The notes beneath the pieces were generated by a model that saw only the letters and a program-made list of their open reading frames with translations, was not told the origin of the DNA and did not search any database. From Clostridia bacterium (lineage in GTDB: Bacteria > Bacillota > Clostridia > Oscillospirales > CAG-272), in NCBI GenBank assembly GCA_017463405.1, contig JAFTPJ010000003.1, positions 56,103 to 120,102 on the forward strand: a stretch of DNA of 64,000 nt. The letters run 5' to 3'. Position 1 is the first letter of the stretch, and every line of letters starts with the position of its first letter. Position numbers and translations under genes: made by a program. Positions 7,442 through 56,250 of the stretch are shown piece by piece.

Positions 7442-8680
7442 TTATTTTGCCACGATTGGAATTTCAATCACGTCACGCGGCTTGCGCACCGTCCAAAGAC
7501 CTCCTGTGAAGTCGGGAATCGCCTGCGGCATACCTCCGGTGGCGACCGAAGCGGCAGAGAGCGCAGTGATGCTCATCCAAGCGGCGGCATCGTAGACATC
7601 GATCGGCATTTCGGTGTTGTTTTTGAGAGCGTTTATGAATTGACGGAACTCGATGCCGTCCATGCCGCCGTGTCCGATCGCGATTTCCTCGGGTGTGATC
7701 TTGCTCCAGCAATCGGGCAGGTAATCGGGCTCAAAGCGAACGGCATTGTTGACGTTTTTGTTAGCGAATTCTGCAGGCTCCCAATATTCTTTCTCTCCAT
7801 CCAGATAGACAAGATTGAGATCCTGCGTGTAAAGTCCGCGCGTGCCGCGGAGCGTAAATTCGCGAGAATAGGAGCGAGGCAGCGTGGTGTCAAGGCGCAG
7901 AGTGATCGTGGAGCCGTCAGCGCAAGTAATGATTGTGTTGACAATATCACCCTGACGGAAAGGTTTTCCGACGAGGTCCGGATATCGATCTGCGTGACGT
8001 GCGATGTAATCCTGCATTCCGACTGCCTTGGAGGCGACGGAAACGAGAGAGAGCATCTGATTTCCGCGATTGATATTGAGCACCTTTGCGATCGGTCCCA
8101 ATTCATGTGTGGGATAATTTTCGCAGTTGCGGGTAAGGTAGTTGCGCAAACGGTAGTGACGGTTGATTTCGCCACCGGCAATCTCCCCGCAAAGATAGTG
8201 CGCGTAGCATCCGTGGGCATGGACGATCTCGCCGAGAAGTCCGTTGCGCACAAGGGAGGTTGCAAGCAGCTCATCCTTTCCGTAACAGCAATTTTCCATA
8301 AACATCAAAGGTGTGGCAGTTGCTTCTTGCGTGCGCACCATATCCCACAGTGGCTCGATGCTATATGCGCCGCCGACCTCAAGCGCGACAGGAATGCCCT
8401 TTTTCAAGGCGTCGATTGCGACCTCGACGTGCGTTTCCCACGAGGTGGAAACGAGAACGGCATCCAATGCGTCCATGTTCAGTATATCCAAATAATTCGT
8501 TGAGCCGCAGGGACGCTTAAAGCCTGCTTTTTCGATAATGTCTTGCGCCTTTTCGACGCGATCTGCATAATTGTCACATACGGCAACGATCTCCACGTCT
8601 GGTAATTTGAGAAGAACGTCCCTTGTCAGTCCGTGGCCTCTTTGTCCGAAGCCGATGACACCCATTTTTACTTTATCCAT
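7442..8680 (-). CDS. Gfo/Idh/MocA-family NAD-binding oxidoreductase (possibly GH109-type glycosidase)
   Basis: 412 aa. It has an N-terminal Rossmann MGVIGFGQRGHG...AVCD and a GGAGGTG RBS. The GH109 idea is inference from size and glycan context only. Confidence 0.75.
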   Translation of the reverse strand: MDKVKMGVIGFGQRGHGLTRDVLLKLPDVEIVAVCDNYADRVEKAQDIIEKAGFKRPCGSTNYLDILNMDALDAVLVSTSWETHVEVAIDALKKGIPVALEVGGAYSIEPLWDMVRTQEATATPLMFMENCCYGKDELLATSLVRNGLLGEIVHAHGCYAHYLCGEIAGGEINRHYRLRNYLTRNCENYPTHELGPIAKVLNINRGNQMLSLVSVASKAVGMQDYIARHADRYPDLVGKPFRQGDIVNTIITCADGSTITLRLDTTLPRSYSREFTLRGTRGLYTQDLNLVYLDGEKEYWEPAEFANKNVNNAVRFEPDYLPDCWSKITPEEIAIGHGGMDGIEFRQFINALKNNTEMPIDVYDAAAWMSITALSAASVATGGMPQAIPDFTGGLWTVRKPRDVIEIPIVAK

Positions 8681-8720
8681 GATTCAACACCTCCGTTGAA
8701 AAAATGATTTTGCAACTGTC

Positions 8721-8749
8721 ATTATAAACGAAAAAAAGACATCTGTCAA
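8721..8749 (-). promoter_or_regulatory. sigma70/SigA-type promoter for the 8680..4347 gene string
   Basis: The reverse complement reads TTGACA-gatgtctttttttcgtt(17)-TATAAT, about 40 nt upstream of the ATG at 8680. Confidence 0.6.
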
Positions 8750-8956
8750 TAGAAAAACGGATACAGATTTTATAAAATCGGGTACCGTCTGTTTTATTTT
8801 GCATCATTTTGTAAAAATATTAAATTAGAATTAGAATATTTATAAAAAATGGATTATAAGATAAAAAAAGCTTATAGAAAAGAGGTGAAAGAGGAAAAGA
8901 AGAATGGTAATATGTGAAAAAACTTTCGAAAAAACAAAAAAAGTCGCAATTTGCTA

Positions 8957-8985
8957 TTGACAAGCGAGCGATTTAATGGTATTAT
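8957..8985 (+). promoter_or_regulatory. sigma70/SigA-type promoter (extended -10) for the giant surface-protein gene
   Basis: TTGACA (8957..8962), a 17-nt spacer ending in TGG, then TATTAT (8980..8985). It sits in a ~420-bp AT-rich intergenic region, about 120 nt upstream of ATG 9104. Confidence 0.55.
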
Positions 8986-9103
8986 ATTATATGTATAAGC
9001 ATTTTCGGTTCCTACGCGTATGCGTAAGCGCGTAGAACCAAGTCGAAAATGACCGTTCGGGAAAACTCCGCGAGCGGAATCTGAAACAAAGCGAGGTTTT
9101 GTT

Positions 9104-12100
9104 ATGAAAAAATTCAACAGAGTTCTTGCTATGATTCTTGCAATCATCATGACACTGGCTGTTATGCCGTTGGGTGTTTTTGCAGACGCATGGCTGGATA
9201 CGAATGTGGAGTCCGACAAGAGTGGCACCACAACGTCTACAGATGTGACGTTGTCCTTGGATGCGGCGGCATTGTTGAGCTATCTCAAGAACGGAGATAA
9301 GGCAGAGCTTTTGGCGGGAATTTCGTTCGGCGAGCTTGCGGATGCCTTTACCCGTGAGGAGTTGAACGGGATTTTCCCCGGCGCAAAGCTTGAGGAAATC
9401 GTTTCTGCCTTGACGGATGAGCTCGATATCGAGTTTGTGTTGCAGTATCTCGATCTTGAGGCGCTTTTGGAGACGATTGATACCGAGGGCTTGATTGCGC
9501 AGATCAAGGCACTTCCCAATCTGCAGGATTACGTCCTTGATTTCGATGCTTTGATGGGCTACATCGAAGATGAAAATCTGGAAGCGGCGGTCAAATATGT
9601 CGATACGGAGGCTTTGATCGCGGATTATACCGATGATCTGATTCCGCTGGCATTGGAACTGGATGCAGAGGTGCTGGCAGCTATCGTCGATATTGATGCG
9701 GTACTGGAACTGGACGGAATTGATATTGCATCGATGCTGGATTTGACTTTCTTCGGTTTGGTGATTTCTTATTCGGATCTGGTATACTTTGACGGTGATG
9801 GAGATGGCGCCCCCGATTATATGGATCACCATGCGTTTATCGATTACATCCACCGTTTCTACAGCGATGAGGAATTTTCTGATGTACTTCATGAATATTA
9901 CGTACGCAGAGATTACATGAAGGAGTTGCTGGAAGACCACGAGCATGATCTTGAGCCCTATATGGACATGGGCAATCTGCAGAGCATGCTGGCGGGTAAG
10001 ACCTACAGCGACGTTCAGGATTATGTCAAGATCAATGCGACTCTGTTTAATATGGTGTCGGATGCGATTGAGAGCAATCCCAATTATGTTATTAAGGAAA
10101 ACGCAAAGGCTGTTTTGGAGAACTTGGTGAATGCAGGGGAAATTGACCTTGCCGATCTGGGTGGCGATTTGGATAACATCGATTACGCAGAGGTGTTCCG
10201 CAGCGACGTGATGAGCTCGGATATCTACGAAGATCTGATCGCCGGTGATGCACTGGATATGAATGCTATGGTAATCAGTGCCGATGCACCGCTCAATATT
10301 CAAAATCTGAATAATGCGGGGATTTTTGAACTGGATCTTATGCTGAATACCGATCCCGATTTCAATATCGACCGTTTGGAAGATGCAAAAGTTATTGATT
10401 TGAATAAGGTAATCTTCGGTGACGAGGAGGCCGGTCTTGATCCCTTTGATAGTGATCTGCTGCTTAAATATAAAGTGCTCAATATGGATGGTATGCTGTC
10501 AGGCACTGCCGAGCGTCCTGAACCGTTGTTCGAGATTGTTGATTTGGTTCGTGATGATATCATTCATGACGAGGCATTGGCGAGCAAGTATGGATATGAT
10601 AATATGATCCTTGATGCGGAACTCAAGAGACAGGTTAAAGCACTGCCCGATACGAGCGTGCTTGCAGATTGCATTGACGATACGGTCGGTGCGATTCAGG
10701 CTGTTGGTGTTCCTGCGGCGGTTGATGCGACCTGCGGCAGTTACGGTGTCCTTATTAATAATTATGTAACCGATGTCGCTGCCATGATGGATGTGCTCGG
10801 CGTTGATGCGGTGATTGCACAAATCATCGAGGATGACATGCTGGATACGATCCTTGATGTTGAGGGGGTTGTCAGAGCTCTTGGTATTGTCACTCTGATC
10901 AGACTGGTTGATCTGCAACTTGTGATCACCCAGCTTCGTGAGAGTGGCGGTTTGCAGGCAATTGTAAAGTCGATCGATCCCGAAAAGTATATCTCTGCTT
11001 TGACCTCTACTCTGGGTGTTCTCGAGAAGAATATCAGCGAGATCAAGGTGAACGATGTTGTAATTACTAAAAAGGATGGCAATCTGCTGTTCATTGATAC
11101 TGCAAGTCTGTTTGTTTTGTTGGAGGACTTTGTTCCCCAGGTGGAGGACATTGCGAATATCGGAGACGACGGAAAGGTGTTTTCCGTAAGTCTTGCAATC
11201 AAGTATAAGTCTGACAATACTAATAATGTAGAAAAAACCAAGGAAATCACCGTGAATGCGGTGCTTGCGAGCGGCGTTGAGCAGGTTCGCAAGGCGGCAC
11301 AGAAGCTACAGTCCATTCTTGACAAGTACTTTGTTTATGATTTCAAGGATGGCATTCTGTCCCTGGATCTCCGTATCCCCGGCAAGTTTGCAACGGCTAT
11401 GAAGCTGGCGCTCGAGAAGTTGGAAACCACGGGCGACAGCGACCTGCAGGCTCTGAAGGATGAGCTTCTGACGATCTTTAATATGAACGTATCCGATGCG
11501 GGAGCGTTTGTGAACAACTTCACGTTGGCACAGATCGTGGATCTGCTGGAGTTGGTGGATTCCTCCAAGTTCAGCGTAGCGTATAGCAAGATCATTGCAA
11601 ATCAGTACGTTCAAACGCTTCTTGATTATATTTCGGAAGCAACCGGACTGGAATATAACGATCTGTCGCTCGACGATCTGCTCCTCACGGCAACGGATCT
11701 TCCGACACTGGAAGAGCTTTGCGAGAGAATTGAATCCAAGTTGGGCAGAGAAATTGAAGCATTTGACAAGCTTCCCACAGGCGATCCCGTGGAGATTCTG
11801 CAACGTCTTGCAAACAAGGCAGGCGTTGATGCAGATTTGAAGCAGATTTTGAAGGATGCCGCAAAGCAGGATGATCCTTTGAAATATCTGTACGATACGG
11901 CTGTTTCGATCATTGAAAACAACGAAAATGCTTATGAGGCAATCAAGAGCCGGGTGATCAATGTGATCGACAAGGTACTCGCTTCCAATCTCGGTCAAAA
12001 GCTGGGCACGCTTTCGCTCTCCGATTTCTATGTAGAATCCGGCGTATTCGAGCTTGTAAAGAGCGTTGAGATTGAGCCCATCACACTTCTGAATAAGGGT

Positions 12101-15100
12101 GTGCAAAAGCTCATTGAGGTTGTGGCTTCCAAGGTTGACTTTGACATGACGCTTGTTGACCGCGTTGCCGACATCATCCTCAGCTATTTCACGGATGACA
12201 CCGTTAAGCTTGGCGTTGATGTGACGACTCGCTTTAACGGACTGTATAAGGCTGTTTTCTATGATGAAAACGGCGATGAGATTCTTACCACGCTGCTTCC
12301 CGAGGGTGCTGATCTGGCTTTGATGATGGATTACACGCCTCTGAATCCCGAGGATGTATTCGAGGGATGGAAGGCGTTGACCTCCGACGACCACTATGAG
12401 GAGATGCCTGCCAAGGATATCGGCTTGATTGCTGATGTTGGTAAGCTTCAGATTATCGTAATCGATCCCGACGATGATACCAAGCTGGTTGGAATCATCC
12501 CCGTGGCTATCGGCGATACGCCGGCAGATTATGCAGATGAGCTGAATGCACTTGTAAAGAGCTATCTAAAGAACAATGCGCTTGCGGATGATGAGATTGT
12601 ATGGTTGAATCATCAGGATCGTGTAGAACTCGATATGAATGCGTCGATCGAAAGCAATCTGTACGTAACATGGCGCTTGAATATTCAGCACACCGTAACG
12701 ATCGTTGATCCCGATACCGACGAGCTTGTTCATGAATTCACAGTACAGGATGGCGAGACTCTGGAGGATTATCTTGCAGAGATGATTGCCAAGGTGAAGG
12801 ATCATCTGGAAGATGATACGATCGCGGATGAAGATATCATTTGGATGTATGAAGATGCGGAATATGATATCACGACGCCCGTAACCTCCGATTTGACTCT
12901 GACTTGGGAGATTGAGGAAACGGTTCTGCCGACTTACACGGTGACGATCGTTGACCCCGATTTGGCAACTCTGGAGGTTCATAGCTTCCCCGTAACCGAA
13001 GGCGATACATTGAGCGAATATCTTACCGAGATGAACGACAGTGTAAGAGACTATTTGGATGACGACACGATCGCAGATGAGGATATTTCCTGGCTCCATA
13101 GCGACGGAACGGCTTGCGATCTTGATGCTGCAATCGTTTCCGATCTGACCTTGACTTGGGAGATCGAAGAAGATGATGAGCCCGAGCAGGTAACAGTTAC
13201 CGTTGTAGATCCCGAGGACAATGATGCAGTTGTTCATACGATTGATGACCTTGTCGAGGGCGATGTACTGAATGCTGATCAGTTGGCAGAAATGTTGGCG
13301 AAGGTCAATGAGTACCTGGGCACGAATTATACCGCTGATCAGATCGTGTGGAAGAATCTTGACGGGACGGATTTCAATGTTTCCGCAGAAATCAATGCAA
13401 ATGTGATCATCACGTGGGCAATTACGCAAACTCCCGACATCGAAACCGTAACTGTGACCGTTGTCAATCGCGAGAATCCTGACGAGGTTCTCTATGAGAC
13501 TACCGTGATCAAGGGTGGACGACTGAACTCTACCGATCTCGATGCGATGAATGCACTCCAGCAGCTGAAGGAGCAGAACCCCAGCGATGAAATGCATGTA
13601 TACCATCACGCATGGCACGATGCAGACGATGCAAGCAAAGCGGTTTTGAATTTGAACACGCTTTCCATCACTGCGGATATGACCCTGACTTGGACTTATG
13701 TCGAGGATAAGGATGCTGTTGCACTGCGCATCGTAGATGCAATCAGGGGTCAGCATTACTACATTACCTCCGATGCAAACAACTGGATCGTTGTTTGGAC
13801 TGACGAATGGCGTGGAGTCTTGGAGCTGGATATTGATGCCGAGTTCTATAGCAATACGAAAAAGAACCTGATTGTGCAATCCGAAACATCGGTTCATCAG
13901 TTTGTATTCCCGAAGGAGCTTTTGGTGAAGGTTGGTGCGGCAGCTGTGGCGGCTGAAATCGCAGACGTCAGCATTCACTACGAGGAGAATAAGGGCGCCG
14001 ATCAGTTCAACTATGCCGCAGACAGTGGCGCCGTGTACTTTACGCTCGGCTTCTACTTTGGTGGCTTTGACGATGGAACTGAAACTTCTGTCGGTGATTT
14101 CGGTGAGAACAAGGTTGTAATCACCATGCCTTTCACCGGTGCATCCAAGACCATGGATAAGAAGACCTTTGTAACGATTGGTACGGATGAGGTCGAGATT
14201 GAAGATAACTATACCGAAAGCAGTGTTACCTTCATGGCACCGCACTTCTCCCCGTTTGCAATCGTCAACAAGTATAATGTCTACCATGCGGATGCTCCCG
14301 ATACGAGCATGTTGCCCGACGGTTTCCCGACGGAGTTGATTCCGACGGCAAACATCGCAACCTTCCCGATCGAGAACAAGTATTACGCAAAGGGACACGT
14401 ATTTAACAATCTCAAGGTTGATCTGCTTGACGGCATCAAGGGCTTTGAGGTCGTTTACACGAAGGTTCTGGCGGGTGCTCCCACGGCGACCGATGCAACC
14501 GTTCTCGAAAAGCTGTATGCAAACGGCTCGTTTGTGATGCCTGATGGCGCAATTACGTTGCAACACGTAATTGATATCAGAGTTTACTACGTGTTCTACT
14601 ATATTAACAGCAAGCTTGACAGCTTGGATTCCTACACTATGCTGGAGTCGTTGCCTGCACTCAAGGCACTGCCCGATGGTTATGCCGCAGAGGACGGCTG
14701 GAGCTGGTCCGGATACAACACCGCCCTGAAGGATCAGGCAGATATCTACGTCTACCTGGTAAATGATAAGGGTGAGGCTGATAAGAGCTTTACTGTGAAC
14801 TTCTTGGATGCGGACGGTAACAAGATTGCTGATCCAATCACCAAAACGGTTCGCGAATGGGCGGATCTTTCGGGCTTCCCGACTGTTGCGGCTGTATTGA
14901 AGCTGACCGATGCAGATGCCACCAAGGCAGGCTATTGGGCAGTGAAGACGGGCGGTGCAGAGAAGCGCGTGAACGACCTGACGACTGCCGAATGGAATGC
15001 GATTTTGGCAGGCGGCACTTCCGTGGACGTTTATGTACAGTACAGCGACCGTGATTATACCGTTTATACGGACGGCAATGCAACGGTGGAAAACATCAGC

Positions 15101-16420
15101 GCATCTGTCGGTGAAACCGTAGAGGTGGTAATCCGTAAGGAACTTGGAAAGACCGCGACCGTGATCGTTCAAAATTTGAACGATGCAACGGATAAGATCG
15201 TATTTACCTTTGCTGAAGGCTCCGATGTAAACGGTTCCTTCGTAATGCCCGCGGCTGACGTTGCGATTGAAGTTGTTTATACCGCAACAACGATTAGCTA
15301 CATTGATGCAAACGGCAAGACGCAGACCGGCGCTTACGGTGATACAAATGAGCTTCCCGCAATCATTATCCCCGAGGGTATGACGCTGGATGCTACCAAG
15401 TTTACCAACATTCCCAACGGATTGGTTCTGACTTCATCCTCTATGGACGAAAACAGAAATCTGATTCTCGTTTACAGTTACGTGCTGATTGACAATACTG
15501 TCAATGAGCAGGCGTTCATAGCAGCTGTTAAGGCGAGCGCGATCAAGGAGCTGGTTTATCAGTCTGTATACGTTCTGAACGGTAAGACATTTGATAATGA
15601 GGATGCGGCACTTGCAACCTTGACTGGAAGCGCAACCTTCAAGAACTGGAGCAAGAGCTTTGGCAAGAATCTCAACTTTGCGGCGTTCAATCTTGCGAGT
15701 GAGAATCTGGAACCCACTCTCCTGATCCTCTGCATCGTACTGGTTGTATTGATTCTGATTCTCTTGATTGCTTTGTTCTATATCCTTTACATCACCGGTA
15801 AGCTGAAGCCCAACTGGTTCCTGAAGATGATAACGGCTATTGTATCCGCCTTCTATGCAGTATGTATGGCGGTTGCAGCTGCAGGACTTGCAATTGCACG
15901 CTTGTTCGGTTACCGTGAGGATGAGCTTGTGGAGACTCCCGAGGAGATCAACGCAAGACTTGCGGCTGAAGCGGCAGAGGAGTCGGTTGAGGAAGCTGCC
16001 GAGGAGCCGACCGAAGAGGCTGTTGAAGAGGTGCCCGAGGCGGTTGTGGAAGATGTAACTGCAGAGTTGTCCGAGGAAACTGCCGAAGAAACAGGCGAGG
16101 ACCACGTTGAAGAAACAGCAGAGGACGACGCTGTTGCAACAGTTGTTGAGGAAACGATCGAAGAAGCGGCACAGGACGACGCGATTGATGTAGTCGTTGA
16201 GGACGCGGTCGAGGAAGCAACTGTTGAAACGACCGAGGAAGCGACCGAGGCGGTTGCCGAAGAGGCTGTCGAAGGAATGACCGAAGAAGTAACCGAGAAA
16301 ACTACCGAGGCGGTTGCCGAAGAGGTTGTTGAGGATACGACCGAAGAAGCTTCCGAGGAAGCAACCGAGGAGACAACCGAAGAGGAAGTCACCGCGGACG
16401 CTGACGAAAAGAAAGAGTAA
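9104..16420 (+). CDS. Giant (2438 aa) highly acidic secreted/cell-surface protein with Flg_new-like tandem modules, C-terminal two-helix membrane anchor and polyacidic tail
   Basis: Signal peptide MKKFNRVLAMILAIIMTLAVMPLGVFA|DAW. About 1000 aa of D/E/L-rich sequence follows with no domain I recognise. Six consecutive ~75-90-aa modules then end in DLTLTWEIEE-type strands and resemble Listeria-Bacteroides (InlB B-repeat/Flg_new) repeats. Two hydrophobic helices follow, then a 170-aa E/A/T/V tail. The gene is a single uninterrupted ORF with a GAGG RBS. Confidence 0.85.
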   Translation: MKKFNRVLAMILAIIMTLAVMPLGVFADAWLDTNVESDKSGTTTSTDVTLSLDAAALLSYLKNGDKAELLAGISFGELADAFTREELNGIFPGAKLEEIVSALTDELDIEFVLQYLDLEALLETIDTEGLIAQIKALPNLQDYVLDFDALMGYIEDENLEAAVKYVDTEALIADYTDDLIPLALELDAEVLAAIVDIDAVLELDGIDIASMLDLTFFGLVISYSDLVYFDGDGDGAPDYMDHHAFIDYIHRFYSDEEFSDVLHEYYVRRDYMKELLEDHEHDLEPYMDMGNLQSMLAGKTYSDVQDYVKINATLFNMVSDAIESNPNYVIKENAKAVLENLVNAGEIDLADLGGDLDNIDYAEVFRSDVMSSDIYEDLIAGDALDMNAMVISADAPLNIQNLNNAGIFELDLMLNTDPDFNIDRLEDAKVIDLNKVIFGDEEAGLDPFDSDLLLKYKVLNMDGMLSGTAERPEPLFEIVDLVRDDIIHDEALASKYGYDNMILDAELKRQVKALPDTSVLADCIDDTVGAIQAVGVPAAVDATCGSYGVLINNYVTDVAAMMDVLGVDAVIAQIIEDDMLDTILDVEGVVRALGIVTLIRLVDLQLVITQLRESGGLQAIVKSIDPEKYISALTSTLGVLEKNISEIKVNDVVITKKDGNLLFIDTASLFVLLEDFVPQVEDIANIGDDGKVFSVSLAIKYKSDNTNNVEKTKEITVNAVLASGVEQVRKAAQKLQSILDKYFVYDFKDGILSLDLRIPGKFATAMKLALEKLETTGDSDLQALKDELLTIFNMNVSDAGAFVNNFTLAQIVDLLELVDSSKFSVAYSKIIANQYVQTLLDYISEATGLEYNDLSLDDLLLTATDLPTLEELCERIESKLGREIEAFDKLPTGDPVEILQRLANKAGVDADLKQILKDAAKQDDPLKYLYDTAVSIIENNENAYEAIKSRVINVIDKVLASNLGQKLGTLSLSDFYVESGVFELVKSVEIEPITLLNKGVQKLIEVVASKVDFDMTLVDRVADIILSYFTDDTVKLGVDVTTRFNGLYKAVFYDENGDEILTTLLPEGADLALMMDYTPLNPEDVFEGWKALTSDDHYEEMPAKDIGLIADVGKLQIIVIDPDDDTKLVGIIPVAIGDTPADYADELNALVKSYLKNNALADDEIVWLNHQDRVELDMNASIESNLYVTWRLNIQHTVTIVDPDTDELVHEFTVQDGETLEDYLAEMIAKVKDHLEDDTIADEDIIWMYEDAEYDITTPVTSDLTLTWEIEETVLPTYTVTIVDPDLATLEVHSFPVTEGDTLSEYLTEMNDSVRDYLDDDTIADEDISWLHSDGTACDLDAAIVSDLTLTWEIEEDDEPEQVTVTVVDPEDNDAVVHTIDDLVEGDVLNADQLAEMLAKVNEYLGTNYTADQIVWKNLDGTDFNVSAEINANVIITWAITQTPDIETVTVTVVNRENPDEVLYETTVIKGGRLNSTDLDAMNALQQLKEQNPSDEMHVYHHAWHDADDASKAVLNLNTLSITADMTLTWTYVEDKDAVALRIVDAIRGQHYYITSDANNWIVVWTDEWRGVLELDIDAEFYSNTKKNLIVQSETSVHQFVFPKELLVKVGAAAVAAEIADVSIHYEENKGADQFNYAADSGAVYFTLGFYFGGFDDGTETSVGDFGENKVVITMPFTGASKTMDKKTFVTIGTDEVEIEDNYTESSVTFMAPHFSPFAIVNKYNVYHADAPDTSMLPDGFPTELIPTANIATFPIENKYYAKGHVFNNLKVDLLDGIKGFEVVYTKVLAGAPTATDATVLEKLYANGSFVMPDGAITLQHVIDIRVYYVFYYINSKLDSLDSYTMLESLPALKALPDGYAAEDGWSWSGYNTALKDQADIYVYLVNDKGEADKSFTVNFLDADGNKIADPITKTVREWADLSGFPTVAAVLKLTDADATKAGYWAVKTGGAEKRVNDLTTAEWNAILAGGTSVDVYVQYSDRDYTVYTDGNATVENISASVGETVEVVIRKELGKTATVIVQNLNDATDKIVFTFAEGSDVNGSFVMPAADVAIEVVYTATTISYIDANGKTQTGAYGDTNELPAIIIPEGMTLDATKFTNIPNGLVLTSSSMDENRNLILVYSYVLIDNTVNEQAFIAAVKASAIKELVYQSVYVLNGKTFDNEDAALATLTGSATFKNWSKSFGKNLNFAAFNLASENLEPTLLILCIVLVVLILILLIALFYILYITGKLKPNWFLKMITAIVSAFYAVCMAVAAAGLAIARLFGYREDELVETPEEINARLAAEAAEESVEEAAEEPTEEAVEEVPEAVVEDVTAELSEETAEETGEDHVEETAEDDAVATVVEETIEEAAQDDAIDVVVEDAVEEATVETTEEATEAVAEEAVEGMTEEVTEKTTEAVAEEVVEDTTEEASEEATEETTEEEVTADADEKKE
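12245..13705 (+). repeat. In-frame tandem protein modules (about six, ~75-90 aa each) inside the giant gene
   Basis: Consecutive modules begin YKAVFYDENGDE, LQIIVIDPDDDTK, HTVTIVDPDTDEL, YTVTIVDPDLATL, VTVTVVDPEDNDA and VTVTVVNRENPDE. Each ends in a ...(L/I)T(L/I)TW(E/A/T)(I/Y).. strand. Confidence 0.75.
15714..15908 (+). other. Two predicted transmembrane helices of the giant protein (C-terminal anchor)
   Basis: TLLILCIVLVVLILILLIALFYILYIT, then a GKLKPNWFLK loop, then MITAIVSAFYAVCMAVAAAGLAIARLF. Confidence 0.7.
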
Positions 16421-16471
16421 TATGAAAATCATTCGTCAGAATGATCTCTCATAACACAATTCTGTGCATCA

Positions 16472-16501
16472 GGGAAAACTTCGATAGGAGTTTTCCCTTT
16501 T
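16472..16501 (+). terminator. Rho-independent terminator of the giant gene
   Basis: gggaaaact (16472..16480) pairs with agttttccc (16489..16497), followed by TTTT. Confidence 0.7.
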
Positions 16502-16532: not shown

Positions 16533-17261
16533 ATGAAATTTACAAAGCACTATACGGTGAGATGGCATGATACCGATTGTAACCGTTGCGTTCGCCCGAC
16601 TAAAATACTGATGTATATGCAGGAAACGGCAGGCGAGCATTTGAAATCGTTGCTCATGTCGATGGATGACATGCGCGATCGGCTGGGTCTGGCGTTTTTG
16701 TTGAGCAGTATCTCCGTTTCGATATATGAGCCCCTATACGCAGACGACGAGATCGATGTGCAGACGTGGGTATGCGAGAGCCGAGGCTTGGGCTACAACC
16801 GTTGCTTTTGTATCATCCGAAACGGCAAGACCGTAGCAGAGGCATCCTCTGTATGGGGATTGCTGGATCTGCGGACACACCGATTGTTGCGTGCGGATGA
16901 GTCCCCATTTGAAGCGAAGCCGGATGCGGCTGTTGCTTTGGATCTTCCCCGCCGCTTGCGCATGGTGCGCATTGAGGAAATGGAAGCGGTGGGAGAGCGG
17001 ACGATTGTATATTCGGATATCGATTATAATGGGCATATGAATAATACGCATTATCCGGATTTGTTCTGCGATTTTACCCCCGATATCTGTCAATCAAGGG
17101 TCTGCGCGATGATGCTTTCATTTTTGCATGAAGGCACATTCGGGCACACCCTGAAGATCTATCGCAAGAAAACGGAGAACGGATATCTGTTCCGAACCGT
17201 TGATGGGGAGGGCGTTACGTGCACCGAGGCGTTGCTTCGCACGGAGCCGTTTTCGAAATAA
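16533..17261 (+). CDS. Acyl-ACP thioesterase (double hot-dog, FatA/B-like)
   Basis: 242 aa. YTVRWHDTDCNRCVRPTKILMYMQE and a second-half YSDIDYNGHMNNTHY are typical of the acyl-ACP thioesterase family. Confidence 0.75.
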   Translation: MKFTKHYTVRWHDTDCNRCVRPTKILMYMQETAGEHLKSLLMSMDDMRDRLGLAFLLSSISVSIYEPLYADDEIDVQTWVCESRGLGYNRCFCIIRNGKTVAEASSVWGLLDLRTHRLLRADESPFEAKPDAAVALDLPRRLRMVRIEEMEAVGERTIVYSDIDYNGHMNNTHYPDLFCDFTPDICQSRVCAMMLSFLHEGTFGHTLKIYRKKTENGYLFRTVDGEGVTCTEALLRTEPFSK

Positions 17262-17325: not shown

Positions 17326-18354
17326 ATGAAACCGATCATCAGAATCAAAAAGTGGCAGCTACTCCGCGTGAAGAAAAAGGACGAGGTGCTGGATCTTACC
17401 GAAGAAGCATTTGTCACAGTTGGAAAAAAAGCATTTCGCGGTACCTGTCAGGAAAGCATTGTCTTTCCGAGTGGGGTGTCGGCGATCAAGGGTGAGGCAT
17501 TTTTCGGTTGTAAGCGTTTGAAACATGTGGTGCTGTCCCGTGAAAATTATATCGGATTGTCTTATGCGGTGTTTCGGAATTGCGAGCGCCTGCACGGGGT
17601 GGAAAATGCAGATCGGATTTCCGTAATTGGTGCGAGTGCGTTTGAAAATTGCTCTATGCTGCAGACGATCGAGCTGGGTCAGGAGCTGCGCCGCATCGGC
17701 GAGTATGCATTCCGCCGTTGCCGTTCGCTCAAGCATATTGTGCTCCCATCGTGCACCGCCGCAATTGGCAAGGGCGCATTTCGGGATTGCACAGAGCTGG
17801 AGAACGTAGAGGTGGGAGAGCGCTTGAACGCATTTTCCGCAGAAATGTTCCGTGGGTGCCTTTCCTTGAAAGACGTAAAGCTACCCGTGTCGATGACAGC
17901 ACTTCCGAAAGGTGTGTTTCGCGACTGTACATCTTTGCGGGATATGGCAGTGCCTGCCGGCGTTCGTTCGGTTGGCAAAAACGCTTTTCGCGGTTGTACG
18001 CGCTTGGAGTCTTTGACGCTGGATAGAGGCGTGGAGTGGATCGGTGCGCATGCATTTGCCGATACGCCGCGCTTGCGTGAGGTTTATATTCCGCACACGC
18101 TCAAGAGATTGGGATTCGGTGCGTTTGGGCTCGGAAAACGTGAGGAGGATGAGAAAATCACGCTTTACGTAAATAGCGAGTATATGGAAAAGCGTATGAA
18201 TCGCTTGGTTGCTCTCTGCGGTTCCTCCGGATGTGTAAAAGTGGTTGTTGTCGGAAAAACGATAGAGGAGAGAAAGCGAGAGAGAAGGCGTTCCTCGCTG
18301 GATTCGGCGCCCGCACATCTGTTTGATGTTGCAGAGGAGAAGAATGAAGAATAA
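17326..18354 (+). CDS. BspA-type leucine-rich-repeat protein
   Basis: 342 aa. About nine ~23-aa units of the form F..C..L..I.LP..V..IG..AF..C are present. AAGGAG RBS. No signal peptide is evident. Confidence 0.75.
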   Translation: MKPIIRIKKWQLLRVKKKDEVLDLTEEAFVTVGKKAFRGTCQESIVFPSGVSAIKGEAFFGCKRLKHVVLSRENYIGLSYAVFRNCERLHGVENADRISVIGASAFENCSMLQTIELGQELRRIGEYAFRRCRSLKHIVLPSCTAAIGKGAFRDCTELENVEVGERLNAFSAEMFRGCLSLKDVKLPVSMTALPKGVFRDCTSLRDMAVPAGVRSVGKNAFRGCTRLESLTLDRGVEWIGAHAFADTPRLREVYIPHTLKRLGFGAFGLGKREEDEKITLYVNSEYMEKRMNRLVALCGSSGCVKVVVVGKTIEERKRERRRSSLDSAPAHLFDVAEEKNEE

Positions 18355-55319: not shown

Positions 55320-56250
55320 ATAAAAATGCAATCAGATAGCGATACGCCTCGTCCCAGCGGGCGTTCGGCTTGTATTGAAACAGGTCCTTCGGAAGATAGA
55401 CGCATTTGCCCTCACGGACGGCAGTCAGGGTCTGCCAGACGACATTTTGCGCGATGAAATTCTTTGCCGCCGTCTCGTTTCCCATGGTGGAGACGAAGAT
55501 GTAGGAGGGATCCTTCTGCACGATCACCTCGTCGTTCAGTCCGTCGAGCAGGATGGGTGCGTCGTTTGCGATATTGTACGCACCGATCTCCTCCAGCATG
55601 GCTGCCGCGAAGTGCAGATCTGCGGTTTTTGCTTTGATAAAGGATGAGCCTGCGCGGACGAAGAGAACATCGGGTGCGGCTTGGAGTTCGGGAAGCGCCG
55701 ACAGCATCGCGTCGATGCGATCACGGACGGCGATGCCGTTGGCTTGGTAGGCGGAAGCGTCCTCGGTGACGTCGGTGCAGATCTTCAGCACGCGGAGATA
55801 ATCCGCAAAGGATTCGATACGGAAGCACGCGGCGGGGATGCCGCTCCGGTTCAGAAGGGCAGCTGCCTGCACCTGCTTTTCCACGTCTGCCGAGCAGATC
55901 ACGAAATCGGGTTGCGCGGCGATGAGCAGCTCGGTGTTGATCGTTTTTCCGGCACCCGCGTCTACGAGAATTGCGTTCGCATCGGTGAAGCCGCGCTCCA
56001 CACTCTCACCAACCGTGATCGAAACGTTGCCGCCTGCCGACACCCATACGTCGGCCAATGAGGAGAACAGAACCGCCACGCGCTGTGGCTTTTTTGAAAG
56101 CTCAATTGTGACGCCCGTGTCATCCGTAAACGCATAAAAGGCATCCGAAACGGGGGCATCGATGTTTCCGTTTGTGCAGGATGTAAGTGCTAAAATCAAG
56201 AGGATGAGCGAGAGGAGGAGGGAAAGGATACGGTGGATTCTCATTGTCAT
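55300..56250 (-). CDS. Periplasmic-binding-protein type (BtuF/FhuD-like) substrate-binding lipoprotein
   Basis: 316 aa. The lipobox is LLILALTSC. It is followed by a class III SBP-like sequence (RVAVLFSSLADVW...PDFVICS). Confidence 0.75.
   Translation of the reverse strand: MTMRIHRILSLLLSLILLILALTSCTNGNIDAPVSDAFYAFTDDTGVTIELSKKPQRVAVLFSSLADVWVSAGGNVSITVGESVERGFTDANAILVDAGAGKTINTELLIAAQPDFVICSADVEKQVQAAALLNRSGIPAACFRIESFADYLRVLKICTDVTEDASAYQANGIAVRDRIDAMLSALPELQAAPDVLFVRAGSSFIKAKTADLHFAAAMLEEIGAYNIANDAPILLDGLNDEVIVQKDPSYIFVSTMGNETAAKNFIAQNVVWQTLTAVREGKCVYLPKDLFQYKPNARWDEAYRYLIAFLYETEQP

Follow-up and report, generated by a model that had tools for sequence, protein, structure and literature searches.

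A giant acidic candidate surface protein of gut Clostridia and its undescribed family

What does a gut bacterium make from a single 7.3-kb gene whose first thousand codons resemble no described family? The gene lies at 9104-16420 on the plus strand of a 64,000-nucleotide stretch of DNA from a Clostridia bacterium of the order Oscillospirales (positions 56,103 to 120,102 of contig JAFTPJ010000003.1, assembly GCA_017463405.1), which is termed the window here and supplies the numbering of all coordinates. A preliminary description, made from the letters of the window, had proposed a new type of hyper-acidic, secreted surface or matrix protein. The reading favored here, at a probability of roughly 0.55, is that the product is a Sec-exported, membrane-tethered surface fibril or adhesin, in which an acidic beta-grasp stalk would cross the cell wall and show a new head of ~1000 residues.

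Oscillospiraceae-like Clostridia are abundant in animal guts, and because almost none have been cultured, little is known of their contact with the outside. Giant uncharacterized surface proteins are frequent in metagenomes; the family described below represents a concrete, conserved, and probably abundant surface component for one uncultured gut clade. The account is descriptive, as the role suggested for the giant protein rests on sequence and predicted structure.

The gene and its family

The gene is one intact open reading frame (ORF) of 2438 codons, from ATG to stop, with a predicted product of 268 kDa and an isoelectric point (pI) of 4.05. Asp and Glu (472 residues) account for 19.4% of the protein, Lys and Arg (153) for 6.3%, and Ser for 4.6%, and Asp, Glu, Leu, Ile, and Ala together make up 49.7% of aa 28-1000, so that both the hyper-acidity and the D/E/L/I/A dominance of the N-terminal region noted in the preliminary description are borne out. 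The same 2438-residue protein is present in two assemblies, one from the European Nucleotide Archive (P0001, 67.9-kb contig) and the other a metagenome-assembled genome (MAG) at NCBI (P0043 or MBQ8309476.1, 127.8-kb contig, labelled ‘Clostridia bacterium’). The two versions differ solely at residue 1086 (L/F), with the window carrying the NCBI version. The frame, described earlier as uninterrupted with the proviso that it might prove split in reads, is therefore intact in a second assembly with one residue changed, and no split occurred.

Long ORFs are also found on the minus strand within the gene, at 8987-10303, 11306-12394, 12566-15172 (868 aa, the longest), and 15434-16432; they are most likely shadow ORFs, because the codon usage of the giant gene is rich in GAN and GCN. 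Such stop-poor DNA on both strands, along with a low-complexity tail and tandem repeats in the tail DNA, is what might be displayed by an artefact or a decaying gene, whether a long ORF arisen by chance in GA-rich DNA or the product of a chimeric assembly. This explanation, whose probability is negligible, is refuted by the homologue set: 42 full-length homologues with 23-53% identity are collinear across the whole length. In addition, the two assemblies concur, conservation extends to the signal peptide, anchor, promoter, and ribosome-binding site, and AlphaFold2 (AF2) models the beads of the stalk with a predicted local distance difference test score (pLDDT) of ~90. All homology of the region lies in the plus frame.

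The homologues, returned by a word-indexed search, range from 1700 to 3165 aa and all lack Pfam domains. Their N-modules line up collinearly with that of the query (aa 28-1110), as do the C-terminal thirds of most of them; collinearity with the query holds for P0002-P0041. An exhaustive HMMER search of 1.84 billion cluster representatives with an N-module profile yielded only 220 matches at E<=1e-3 and 77 at E<=1e-30, with the weaker matches sharing only a sub-module, either ~aa 930-1110 (helices and the first beta-grasp domain) or ~aa 620-800. Proteins P0105-P0185 are large, acidic, and exported and carry only sub-modules of the head; some have Flg_new or LPXTG, and in many, one transmembrane helix is placed several hundred residues ahead of the C-terminus. 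They may form a superfamily of Clostridia surface proteins. The named family members are all MAGs labelled Clostridia, Eubacteriales, Oscillospiraceae, or Ruminococcaceae, and the few records that state a source give faecal or caecal samples. The pI ranges from 4.05 to 4.6 across the family.

The query carries the traits that unite these proteins, namely (i) the conserved signal peptide, (ii) the N-module, and (iii) a C-terminal two-helix module with an acidic tail. By sequence, and within the reach of the tools used, it appears to be the founding member of an undescribed family of giant cell-envelope proteins; no published description of the family was found by accession number or topic. Among the compared loci, the encoded giant proteins are 26-45% identical, as against 89% for GlnA3, 68-81% for the GH109-like protein, 53-78% for the thioesterase, and 45-56% for the leucine-rich repeat (LRR) protein. 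The giant gene thus behaves as an orthologue confined to one locus, with a rate of divergence about double that of its neighbors, which fits surface exposure of its product.

Predicted head, stalk, and membrane anchor

Export is indicated by a Sec signal peptide (aa 1-27; 9104-9184, plus strand) that begins MKKFNRVLAMILA and consists of MKKFNR, a hydrophobic core, and VFA followed by DAW, between which cleavage is predicted. The clear signal peptide of the preliminary description is nearly invariant in the family, where it follows the pattern MK.FN[KR]VLA and the conserved N-terminal residues include M1, K2, K3, N5, R6, L8, A9, M10, L12, P22, A27, W30, and L31. The segment 9104-9200 (aa 1-32; MKKFNRVLAMLLA...LP.S..AD.WL) is ~50-80% identical among proteins that are otherwise 25-35% identical. 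Signal peptides usually drift, and the unusual conservation of this one and of the first mature residues hints at a dedicated recognition step. The features of specialized YSIRK or KxYKxGKxW signal peptides and of serine-rich-repeat adhesins are absent, with no match in Pfam.

The mature protein was modelled with AF2 from family alignments in two segments, aa 1-1120 (mean pLDDT 71.5) and aa 1100-2290 (mean pLDDT 77.5). The head comprises (i) a beta-hairpin (aa 38-52) and an acidic array of short-helix repeats (aa 54-643), both within 9185-11032, (ii) a conserved alpha/beta domain (aa 644-760; 11033-11383), assigned from AF2 secondary structure, and (iii) a conserved helical domain (aa 761-1030; 11384-12193) modelled with low confidence (pLDDT 50-65), all on the plus strand.

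The array bears a net charge of -91 and is predicted to contain ~50 helices of 4-18 residues, mostly shorter than 10, parted by turns and single-residue bridges, with pLDDT values of 80-93 across aa 140-560. Asp is the N-cap residue in 24 of 50 helices, usually with a hydrophobic residue before it. The corresponding hydrophobic-Asp-x-x-x-hydrophobic motif occurs 10-16 times in the array compared to 2.4-4.9 times in shuffles (z ~5), and its spacing is only loosely periodic. The loosely periodic D-x-E-A-L-(L/I)-type motifs reported earlier are therefore present above chance, and the ‘D-x-E-A-L-L’ impression is explained by the capping-box short helix that recurs throughout the array. Alignment of 70-residue tiles of the family alignment with hhalign finds internal matches between aa 376-415 and 451-494 (93% probability), 87-144 and 571-630 (84%), and 108-132 and 146-173 (71%), from which the array appears to be a diverged repeat. 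A helical-repeat N-terminus, suggested in the preliminary description, is thus supported as a prediction by both AF2 and hhalign.

Conservation within the head is uneven. It is highest in aa 1-200, the alpha/beta domain, and the helical domain, and many homologues have lost, replaced, or enlarged the middle of the array (aa 200-480), with P0037 showing clear ~27-residue repeats in this region. The alpha/beta domain recurs alone in other large proteins (profile positions 550-750). The near-invariant residues of the helical domain include Y835, A919, Y930, Y976, and F982, and the invariant residues are aromatic, aliphatic, Pro, or Gly, apart from a single Lys and a single Asp. No catalytic-type set of conserved residues is found in the family consensus of the giant protein, on which ground a toxin or enzyme role was rejected. 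A loop resembling those of EF-hands and thrombospondin (TSP) type 3 repeats, DGDGDGAPDYMD (aa 229-240; 9788-9823), fits the DxDxDGxxDxxD pattern of Ca2+-binding loops, dockerins included; the alignment is poor around it, the family consensus lacks it, and it is specific to the query. Binding of cations or host glycans, put forward in the preliminary description, is conjectural.

Searches against known families and folds returned no relative of the head. Pfam and NCBIfam scans of the whole query at E up to 1 gave no family match to aa 28-1030, and Pfam scans of seven family members for recurrent weak matches gave nothing consistent for the head. PDB sequence searches (single sequence and two profiles) contained no head match and otherwise noise at E>0.07, and Foldseek, run with the N-terminal model on PDB and BFVD, gave no match within aa 28-1030. 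Several candidates were rejected: (i) DUF2207_C, AmaP, AuxB, and DUF445 matches in Pfam and NCBIfam are noise around the membrane helices and tail, (ii) mycobacterial bL17 in the PDB sequence search has merely a low-complexity likeness to the acidic tail, (iii) SMC/JetC coiled coils and kinesins in Foldseek have probabilities <0.15 and root-mean-square deviations >20, and (iv) the insect-allergen (Bla g 1) repeat PF06757 matches two of the seven family members, at best E 0.005 and under the 23.2-bit cut-off. One of these two matches is in P0037 (14.4 bits, E 0.036, aa 703-759) and lies outside the helix array; PF06757 has no match in the query. The N-terminal ~1000 residues are accordingly unrecognizable, as first stated, over aa 28-1030 in Pfam, NCBIfam, PDB, and Foldseek searches of PDB and BFVD, but not in the adjoining aa 1034-1114, which resemble an InlB B-repeat. 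No profile search placed the head in a known adhesin or S-layer family, and the proposal of a new type of protein is supported to that extent.

The stalk begins with this beta-grasp domain (aa 1031-1114; 12194-12445, plus strand), which is InlB B-repeat/Flg_new-like. In a Foldseek search with the AF2 model, aa 1034-1114 match the InlB B-repeat structures 7nms and 7pv9 (E ~1e-3, probability 1.0), and P0010 has a weak Pfam Flg_new match at the equivalent position. The domain and its preceding helices recur in other surface proteins carrying Flg_new or LPXTG. Four to five tandem beta-grasp repeats of ~82 aa follow (aa 1115-1500; 12446-13603, plus strand), identified by internal BLAST, AF2, and Foldseek. 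Their mutual identity is 29-55% at multiples of ~82 residues, their most acidic stretch (aa 1201-1400) is 29-32% Asp and Glu, and AF2 predicts an EE-H-EE pattern at pLDDT ~90. In Foldseek, the predicted structure of the bead half matches linear tetra-ubiquitin and the ubiquitin-like (UBL) arrays of USP7 with E values of 7e-13 to 1e-10, as well as the cell-surface protein YwfG and a R. gnavus immunoglobulin (Ig)-binding protein. A tandem ~70-85-residue beta-grasp, or ubiquitin-like, fold is therefore what the model shows, and bead copy number differs among homologues. The remainder of the ectodomain (aa 1501-2198; 13604-15697, plus strand) is a conserved beta-rich region, recognized by AF2, Foldseek, and Pfam matches in homologues. 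The Flg_new (PF09479) and Flg_new_2 (PF18998) matches at equivalent positions in homologues are mostly below the cut-off, with P0041 just above it (Flg_new_2, 24.5 bits versus 23.6); neither family matches the query at E up to 1.

The stalk ends at a membrane anchor (aa 2199-2270; 15698-15913, plus strand), seen in both hydropathy and AF2, that consists of two hydrophobic helices (aa 2203-2230 and 2239-2267 in AF2) joined by a short basic loop (TGKLKPNWFLK). The two-helix module is present in 97 of the 185 collected relatives, amounting to virtually every core member of full length, and aa 2220-2259 have an identity of 0.53 across the family, a conservation like that of the signal peptide and N-terminus. 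Because of these two C-terminal hydrophobic helices, the giant protein is predicted to be tethered to the membrane rather than freely secreted, and the conservation of the module to the level of the signal peptide suggests that it is more than a passive anchor. The basic sequence of the loop would favor a hairpin whose ends both lie outside, but helix 2 is likewise followed by basic residues.

Beyond the anchor lies a poly-acidic, low-complexity tail rich in Glu, Ala, and Thr (aa 2271-2438; 15914-16420 including the stop codon, plus strand), ~170 residues long, in which 41 of 100 residues are Asp or Glu. Acidic tails of 25-305 aa with 30-47% Asp and Glu occur in all complete family members except P0042, such that the tail is kept as a feature and not as a sequence. 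Its coding region contains imperfect DNA tandem repeats at 16085-16380 (periods of 12, 24, 51, and 60 bp), which fit the variable tail length among homologues. A word-indexed search with aa 2120-2300 (181 residues) failed to return even the source protein, which was taken as a limit of the tool and not as evidence.

The notion of a secreted or matrix protein lacking an anchor is therefore not upheld, whereas that of an exported, cell-surface protein is strengthened by the signal peptide and a 2170-residue ectodomain containing adhesin-like beta-grasp beads. The conventional anchoring motifs are indeed missing, as first noted for LPXTG, SLH, choline-binding, and dockerin: (i) LP.[TSA][GAN] occurs nowhere in the giant protein and Pfam Gram_pos_anchor does not match, (ii) SLH and CW_binding_2 (CWB2) domains are absent in Pfam and NCBIfam at E values up to 1, and (iii) dockerins (type I, II, or III), cohesins, and choline-binding domains have no Pfam match in the query. 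FIVAR-GA and DUF1542 repeat modules have no Pfam match either, with Ebh fragments unmatched in PDB by sequence or fold.

The same features invite a second, tentative reading, in which the protein is a structural scaffold of the envelope. It would form an abundant polyanionic coat or spacer that stands in for an S-layer or for teichoic-acid-like charge and is needed for the wall architecture or cation homeostasis of the clade, with the acidic tail and beads binding Mg2+ or Ca2+ at the membrane-wall interface. The family-wide extreme acidity, the conservation of the poly-acidic tail as a feature, and the strong conservation of the anchor, which suggests a membrane partner, are all in its favor. 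However, such acidity is common in Gram-positive surface proteins, the sole canonical Ca2+-type loop is the unconserved one at aa 229-240, and Pfam finds no self-assembly or known wall-binding domain (SLH, CWB2). Furthermore, the middle of the array and the number of beads vary freely among orthologues, which is unusual for a lattice-forming protein.

Expression signals and the conserved locus

The spacer upstream of the giant gene (8681-9103) is 423 bp long with a guanine-cytosine content of 31.9%, compared to 50.4% for the window. It holds a sigma-A type promoter (8957-8985, plus strand) composed of TTGACA (8957-8962), a 17-nt spacer, and TGGTATTAT (8977-8985), which reads TG-G-TATTAT as an extended -10 element. 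With 11 of 12 consensus matches in addition to the TG extension, it is near-consensus, and the earlier claim of an extended -10 promoter in an AT-rich spacer is correct. The plan of TTGACA, ~17 nt, and TGnTAxxAT followed by a leader of ~90-140 nt is common to 13 loci, 12 of them besides the window. A sporulation-specific role was rejected on the ground that this is a vegetative promoter of sigma-A type.

The 5′ leader, whose start is placed from the -10 element, would span ~112 nt (8992-9103, plus strand) and can form three hairpins. Hairpin 1 (9007-9039) is followed by hairpin 2 (9053-9077; CCGTTCG...CGAGCGG) and a conserved GGAAUCUGAnAC linker, and a third hairpin (9085-9103) has a loop that exposes the Shine-Dalgarno sequence GAGG (9093-9096) at a distance of 7 nt from the ATG. 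Hairpin 2 is located ~25 nt upstream of the ribosome-binding site in 11 of 11 analyzed leaders, with the divergent L003 and L006 left out; leaders equivalent to that of the window occur in L001, L003-L005, L007, L008, and L012-L016. Its stems differ (CCGTTCG/CGAGCGG, CCGTTG/CAACGG, CCGCCG/CGGCGG, and CCG-CCAAAC/GTTTGGCGG), representing compensatory changes. The leader end is nearly invariant (GGAAUCUGAnAC-AAAGyGAGGUUUUGU-AUG) and can fold with GAGG in the loop. These structures derive from per-sequence folds anchored on the conserved linker, as RNAalifold on a MAFFT alignment gave none owing to misaligned hairpins. Rfam has no match to the leader. The leader motif occurs once per locus, and thus there is no sign of a regulon.

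A terminator-like hairpin lies on the 3′ side of the gene (16472-16501, plus strand), ~30 nt before the thioesterase start codon, and consists of GGGAAAACUUC, a loop, and GAGUUUUCCC followed by UUUU. The 12-bp stem takes the family form GGGAAAACUUC-N4-GARGUUUUCCC, then UUUUGC, and is almost invariant in 14 orthologous loci, in which the loop varies freely and the flanking proteins are 25-78% identical. Besides the window, these loci are L001, L002, L004, L005, L007, L008, L010, L011, and L013-L017, and the hairpin is also present on the metagenome contigs L018-L021 and L023-L026. Of nine short metagenome contigs recovered by the hairpin motif alone, eight have it directly upstream of the thioesterase gene. 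A simple terminator scan misses the hairpin, which has only four U, and an Rfam small RNA match to the region was rejected as sub-threshold (22 bits versus a cut-off of 70). The constraint on the stem exceeds what a plain terminator needs. As DNA the hairpin is a perfect palindrome, and it could serve as a protein-binding site.

A consensus promoter, a structured leader, and a strong 3′ hairpin form the pattern of mRNAs for abundant envelope proteins such as those of S-layer genes. The scaffold alternative draws on these vegetative signals, and on the presence of the gene at one syntenic site in every sampled locus beside housekeeping-type genes, which points to a core gene rather than an accessory island. 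For the surface fibril or adhesin, the same signals would supply a stable, highly expressed mRNA and an abundant protein.

The conserved order of the locus is a GH109-like gene, the giant gene, the near-invariant hairpin, an acyl-ACP (acyl carrier protein) thioesterase, and a cytoplasmic LRR protein. The GH109-like gene encodes an NAD-dependent glycosidase/oxidoreductase by Pfam and is divergent in the window (7442-8680, or 7442-8749 with its promoter, minus strand), as it is in most orthologous loci. Its promoter, found by promoter scan (8749 to 8721, minus strand), is a perfect 12/12 match to the sigma-70 consensus (TTGACA, 17 nt, TATAAT). This glycosidase neighborhood is clade synteny and not evidence of shared function. 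Downstream, Pfam and translation identify the thioesterase (16533-17261, plus strand) and a BspA-type LRR_5 protein (17326-18354, plus strand), which lacks a signal peptide and whose C-terminus is basic (RKRERRR). In each of the 14 loci whose sequence extends downstream, the thioesterase gene is 3′ of the giant gene, and the LRR gene comes next in 12 of these at 45-73% identity, being absent in L003 and beyond the end of the contig in L005. The two genes overlap in L014 and L015. Because only ~30 nt separate the hairpin from the thioesterase ATG, a space too small for a promoter, the pair is probably expressed by read-through of the hairpin.

In L003 and L005 the giant gene is situated a few kb from rsmG(gidB)-parA-parB-serS, i.e., near the replication origin region; within the window itself GC skew is monotonic, and no origin is present. 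Descent of the gene from a phage or mobile element was rejected, given that it is flanked by housekeeping genes in conserved synteny and that no viral fold was matched.

Such putative co-transcription raises the question of whether the giant protein acts with the thioesterase and the LRR_5 protein in a joint lipid-related envelope process, e.g., in binding or handling fatty acids released by the thioesterase or through its own acylation. The order of giant gene, hairpin, thioesterase, and LRR is kept in almost all loci with sufficient sequence, even at 24-27% giant-protein identity. The lack of promoter room and the overlap of the pair in some loci also agree with a joint process, and the LRR protein, lacking a signal peptide and basic at its RKRERRR terminus, would be able to dock on the acidic tail, provided that the tail is cytoplasmic. 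Yet the upstream GH109-like, GH20, and GlnA3 genes are equally conserved in position, so that inherited synteny suffices, L003 lacks the LRR gene, and the strong hairpin parts the giant gene from the pair. The weak matches of two family members to the lipid-binding insect-allergen repeat (best E 0.005; E 0.036 at P0037 aa 703-759) are sub-threshold and, for P0037, outside the helix array, and Foldseek finds no lipid-transfer fold likeness in the giant protein. A joint lipid process is consequently very improbable.

A broader conjecture, also unlikely though slightly less so, treats the protein as a clade-defining, essential organizer of the envelope. The array would then be a new fold, the anchor and acidic tail a new anchoring and charge module that acts as a protein counterpart of teichoic acids, and the hairpin and covarying leader new cis-regulatory RNAs that set the ratio of the giant protein to the thioesterase and LRR protein.

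Proposed role and comparison with known systems

In the favored reading, the giant protein would be exported by the Sec pathway, with the signal peptide cut after VFA, and held at the cytoplasmic membrane by the conserved C-terminal helix pair, as hydropathy, AF2, and conservation suggest. Its stalk (aa 1034-2195) is envisaged as a flexible, acidic string of at least 10 beta-grasp or beta-rich beads, long enough to traverse the wall. InlB-B-repeat and Mub-type domains serve as stalks in known Gram-positive adhesins. The stalk would present the ~1000-residue head, with its Asp-capped short-helix array, alpha/beta domain, and helical domain, as the specific working part for putative binding of a ligand, partner, or cation. 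The thioesterase and LRR genes would most likely be expressed alongside through the 3′ hairpin.

Four considerations weigh against this proposal. The strict single locus, the conserved signal peptide, and the anchor fit a structural or housekeeping role in the envelope at least equally well. High expression is hinted at by consensus signals only. The sequence fixes neither the topology of helix 2 nor the membrane side of the tail. Lastly, the alignments behind the AF2 models are shallow (27-39 sequences), with predicted template modelling scores of 0.38-0.42 and pLDDT values of 50-65 for aa 740-1030.

The family nevertheless displays a mode of anchoring that differs from the LPXTG, SLH, and choline-binding schemes. 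Candidate uses include (i) a lineage marker or antigen, (ii) structural analysis of what may be a new helical-repeat fold, and (iii) research into the tuning of a giant gene relative to its downstream partners by conserved leader and terminator RNAs.

Among known systems, the closest in design are the InlB B-repeat, Flg_new, and Mub (MucBP) proteins, such as Listeria InlB, Lactococcus YwfG, and the R. gnavus Ig-binding protein. They share with the query a signal peptide, an ectodomain made up mostly of ~80-residue beta-grasp domains in a string, and the character of an acidic surface protein of Gram-positive gut bacteria. In contrast, the repeats of the query fall below every Pfam threshold, no LRR, lectin, or other known binding domain makes up its head, and its anchor consists of two transmembrane helices and an acidic tail instead of LPXTG, GW, or SLH. 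On the strength of the models, the giant protein may well work like these bead-on-a-string adhesins of Gram-positive bacteria.

S-layer genes offer a parallel in expression signals alone, sharing a strong promoter, a long structured leader, a strong terminator, and an acidic envelope product. Unlike S-layer proteins, the query has no SLH or CWB2 domain and is several-fold larger.

S. aureus Ebh and S. epidermidis Embp are giant proteins with a signal peptide, long helical repeats, and a C-terminal transmembrane anchor independent of sortase, for which a role in envelope integrity or adhesion has been proposed. The query recalls Ebh in its size, helical content, and transmembrane anchoring, and resembles both proteins in being very large, built on helical repeats, and anchored by transmembrane helices and not by sortase. 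However, it has no FIVAR, GA, or DUF1542 repeats, its helices are short, irregular, and often Asp-capped whereas theirs form 126-residue three-helix-bundle units, and it ends in two membrane helices and an acidic tail where theirs end in one helix and a basic tail.

Giant1-5 of Apilactobacillus kunkeei are elongated extracellular proteins of several thousand residues with an N-terminal head on a long repetitive body, the heads being beta-solenoids related to serine-rich-repeat adhesins (PMC12863079). A distinct N-terminal head, a long repetitive body, and an origin in host-associated Firmicutes are common to both systems. They differ in that the head of the query is all short helices with no detectable relative, and in that the genes of Giant1-5 form a variable multi-gene cluster while that of the query is a single syntenic orthologue.

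By sequence-defined membership, the query falls outside all of the adhesin and envelope classes compared. What is new here is a head with no counterpart in Pfam, NCBIfam, or PDB and an unusual anchor, set in a protein whose overall kind, the giant Gram-positive surface protein, is a known one.

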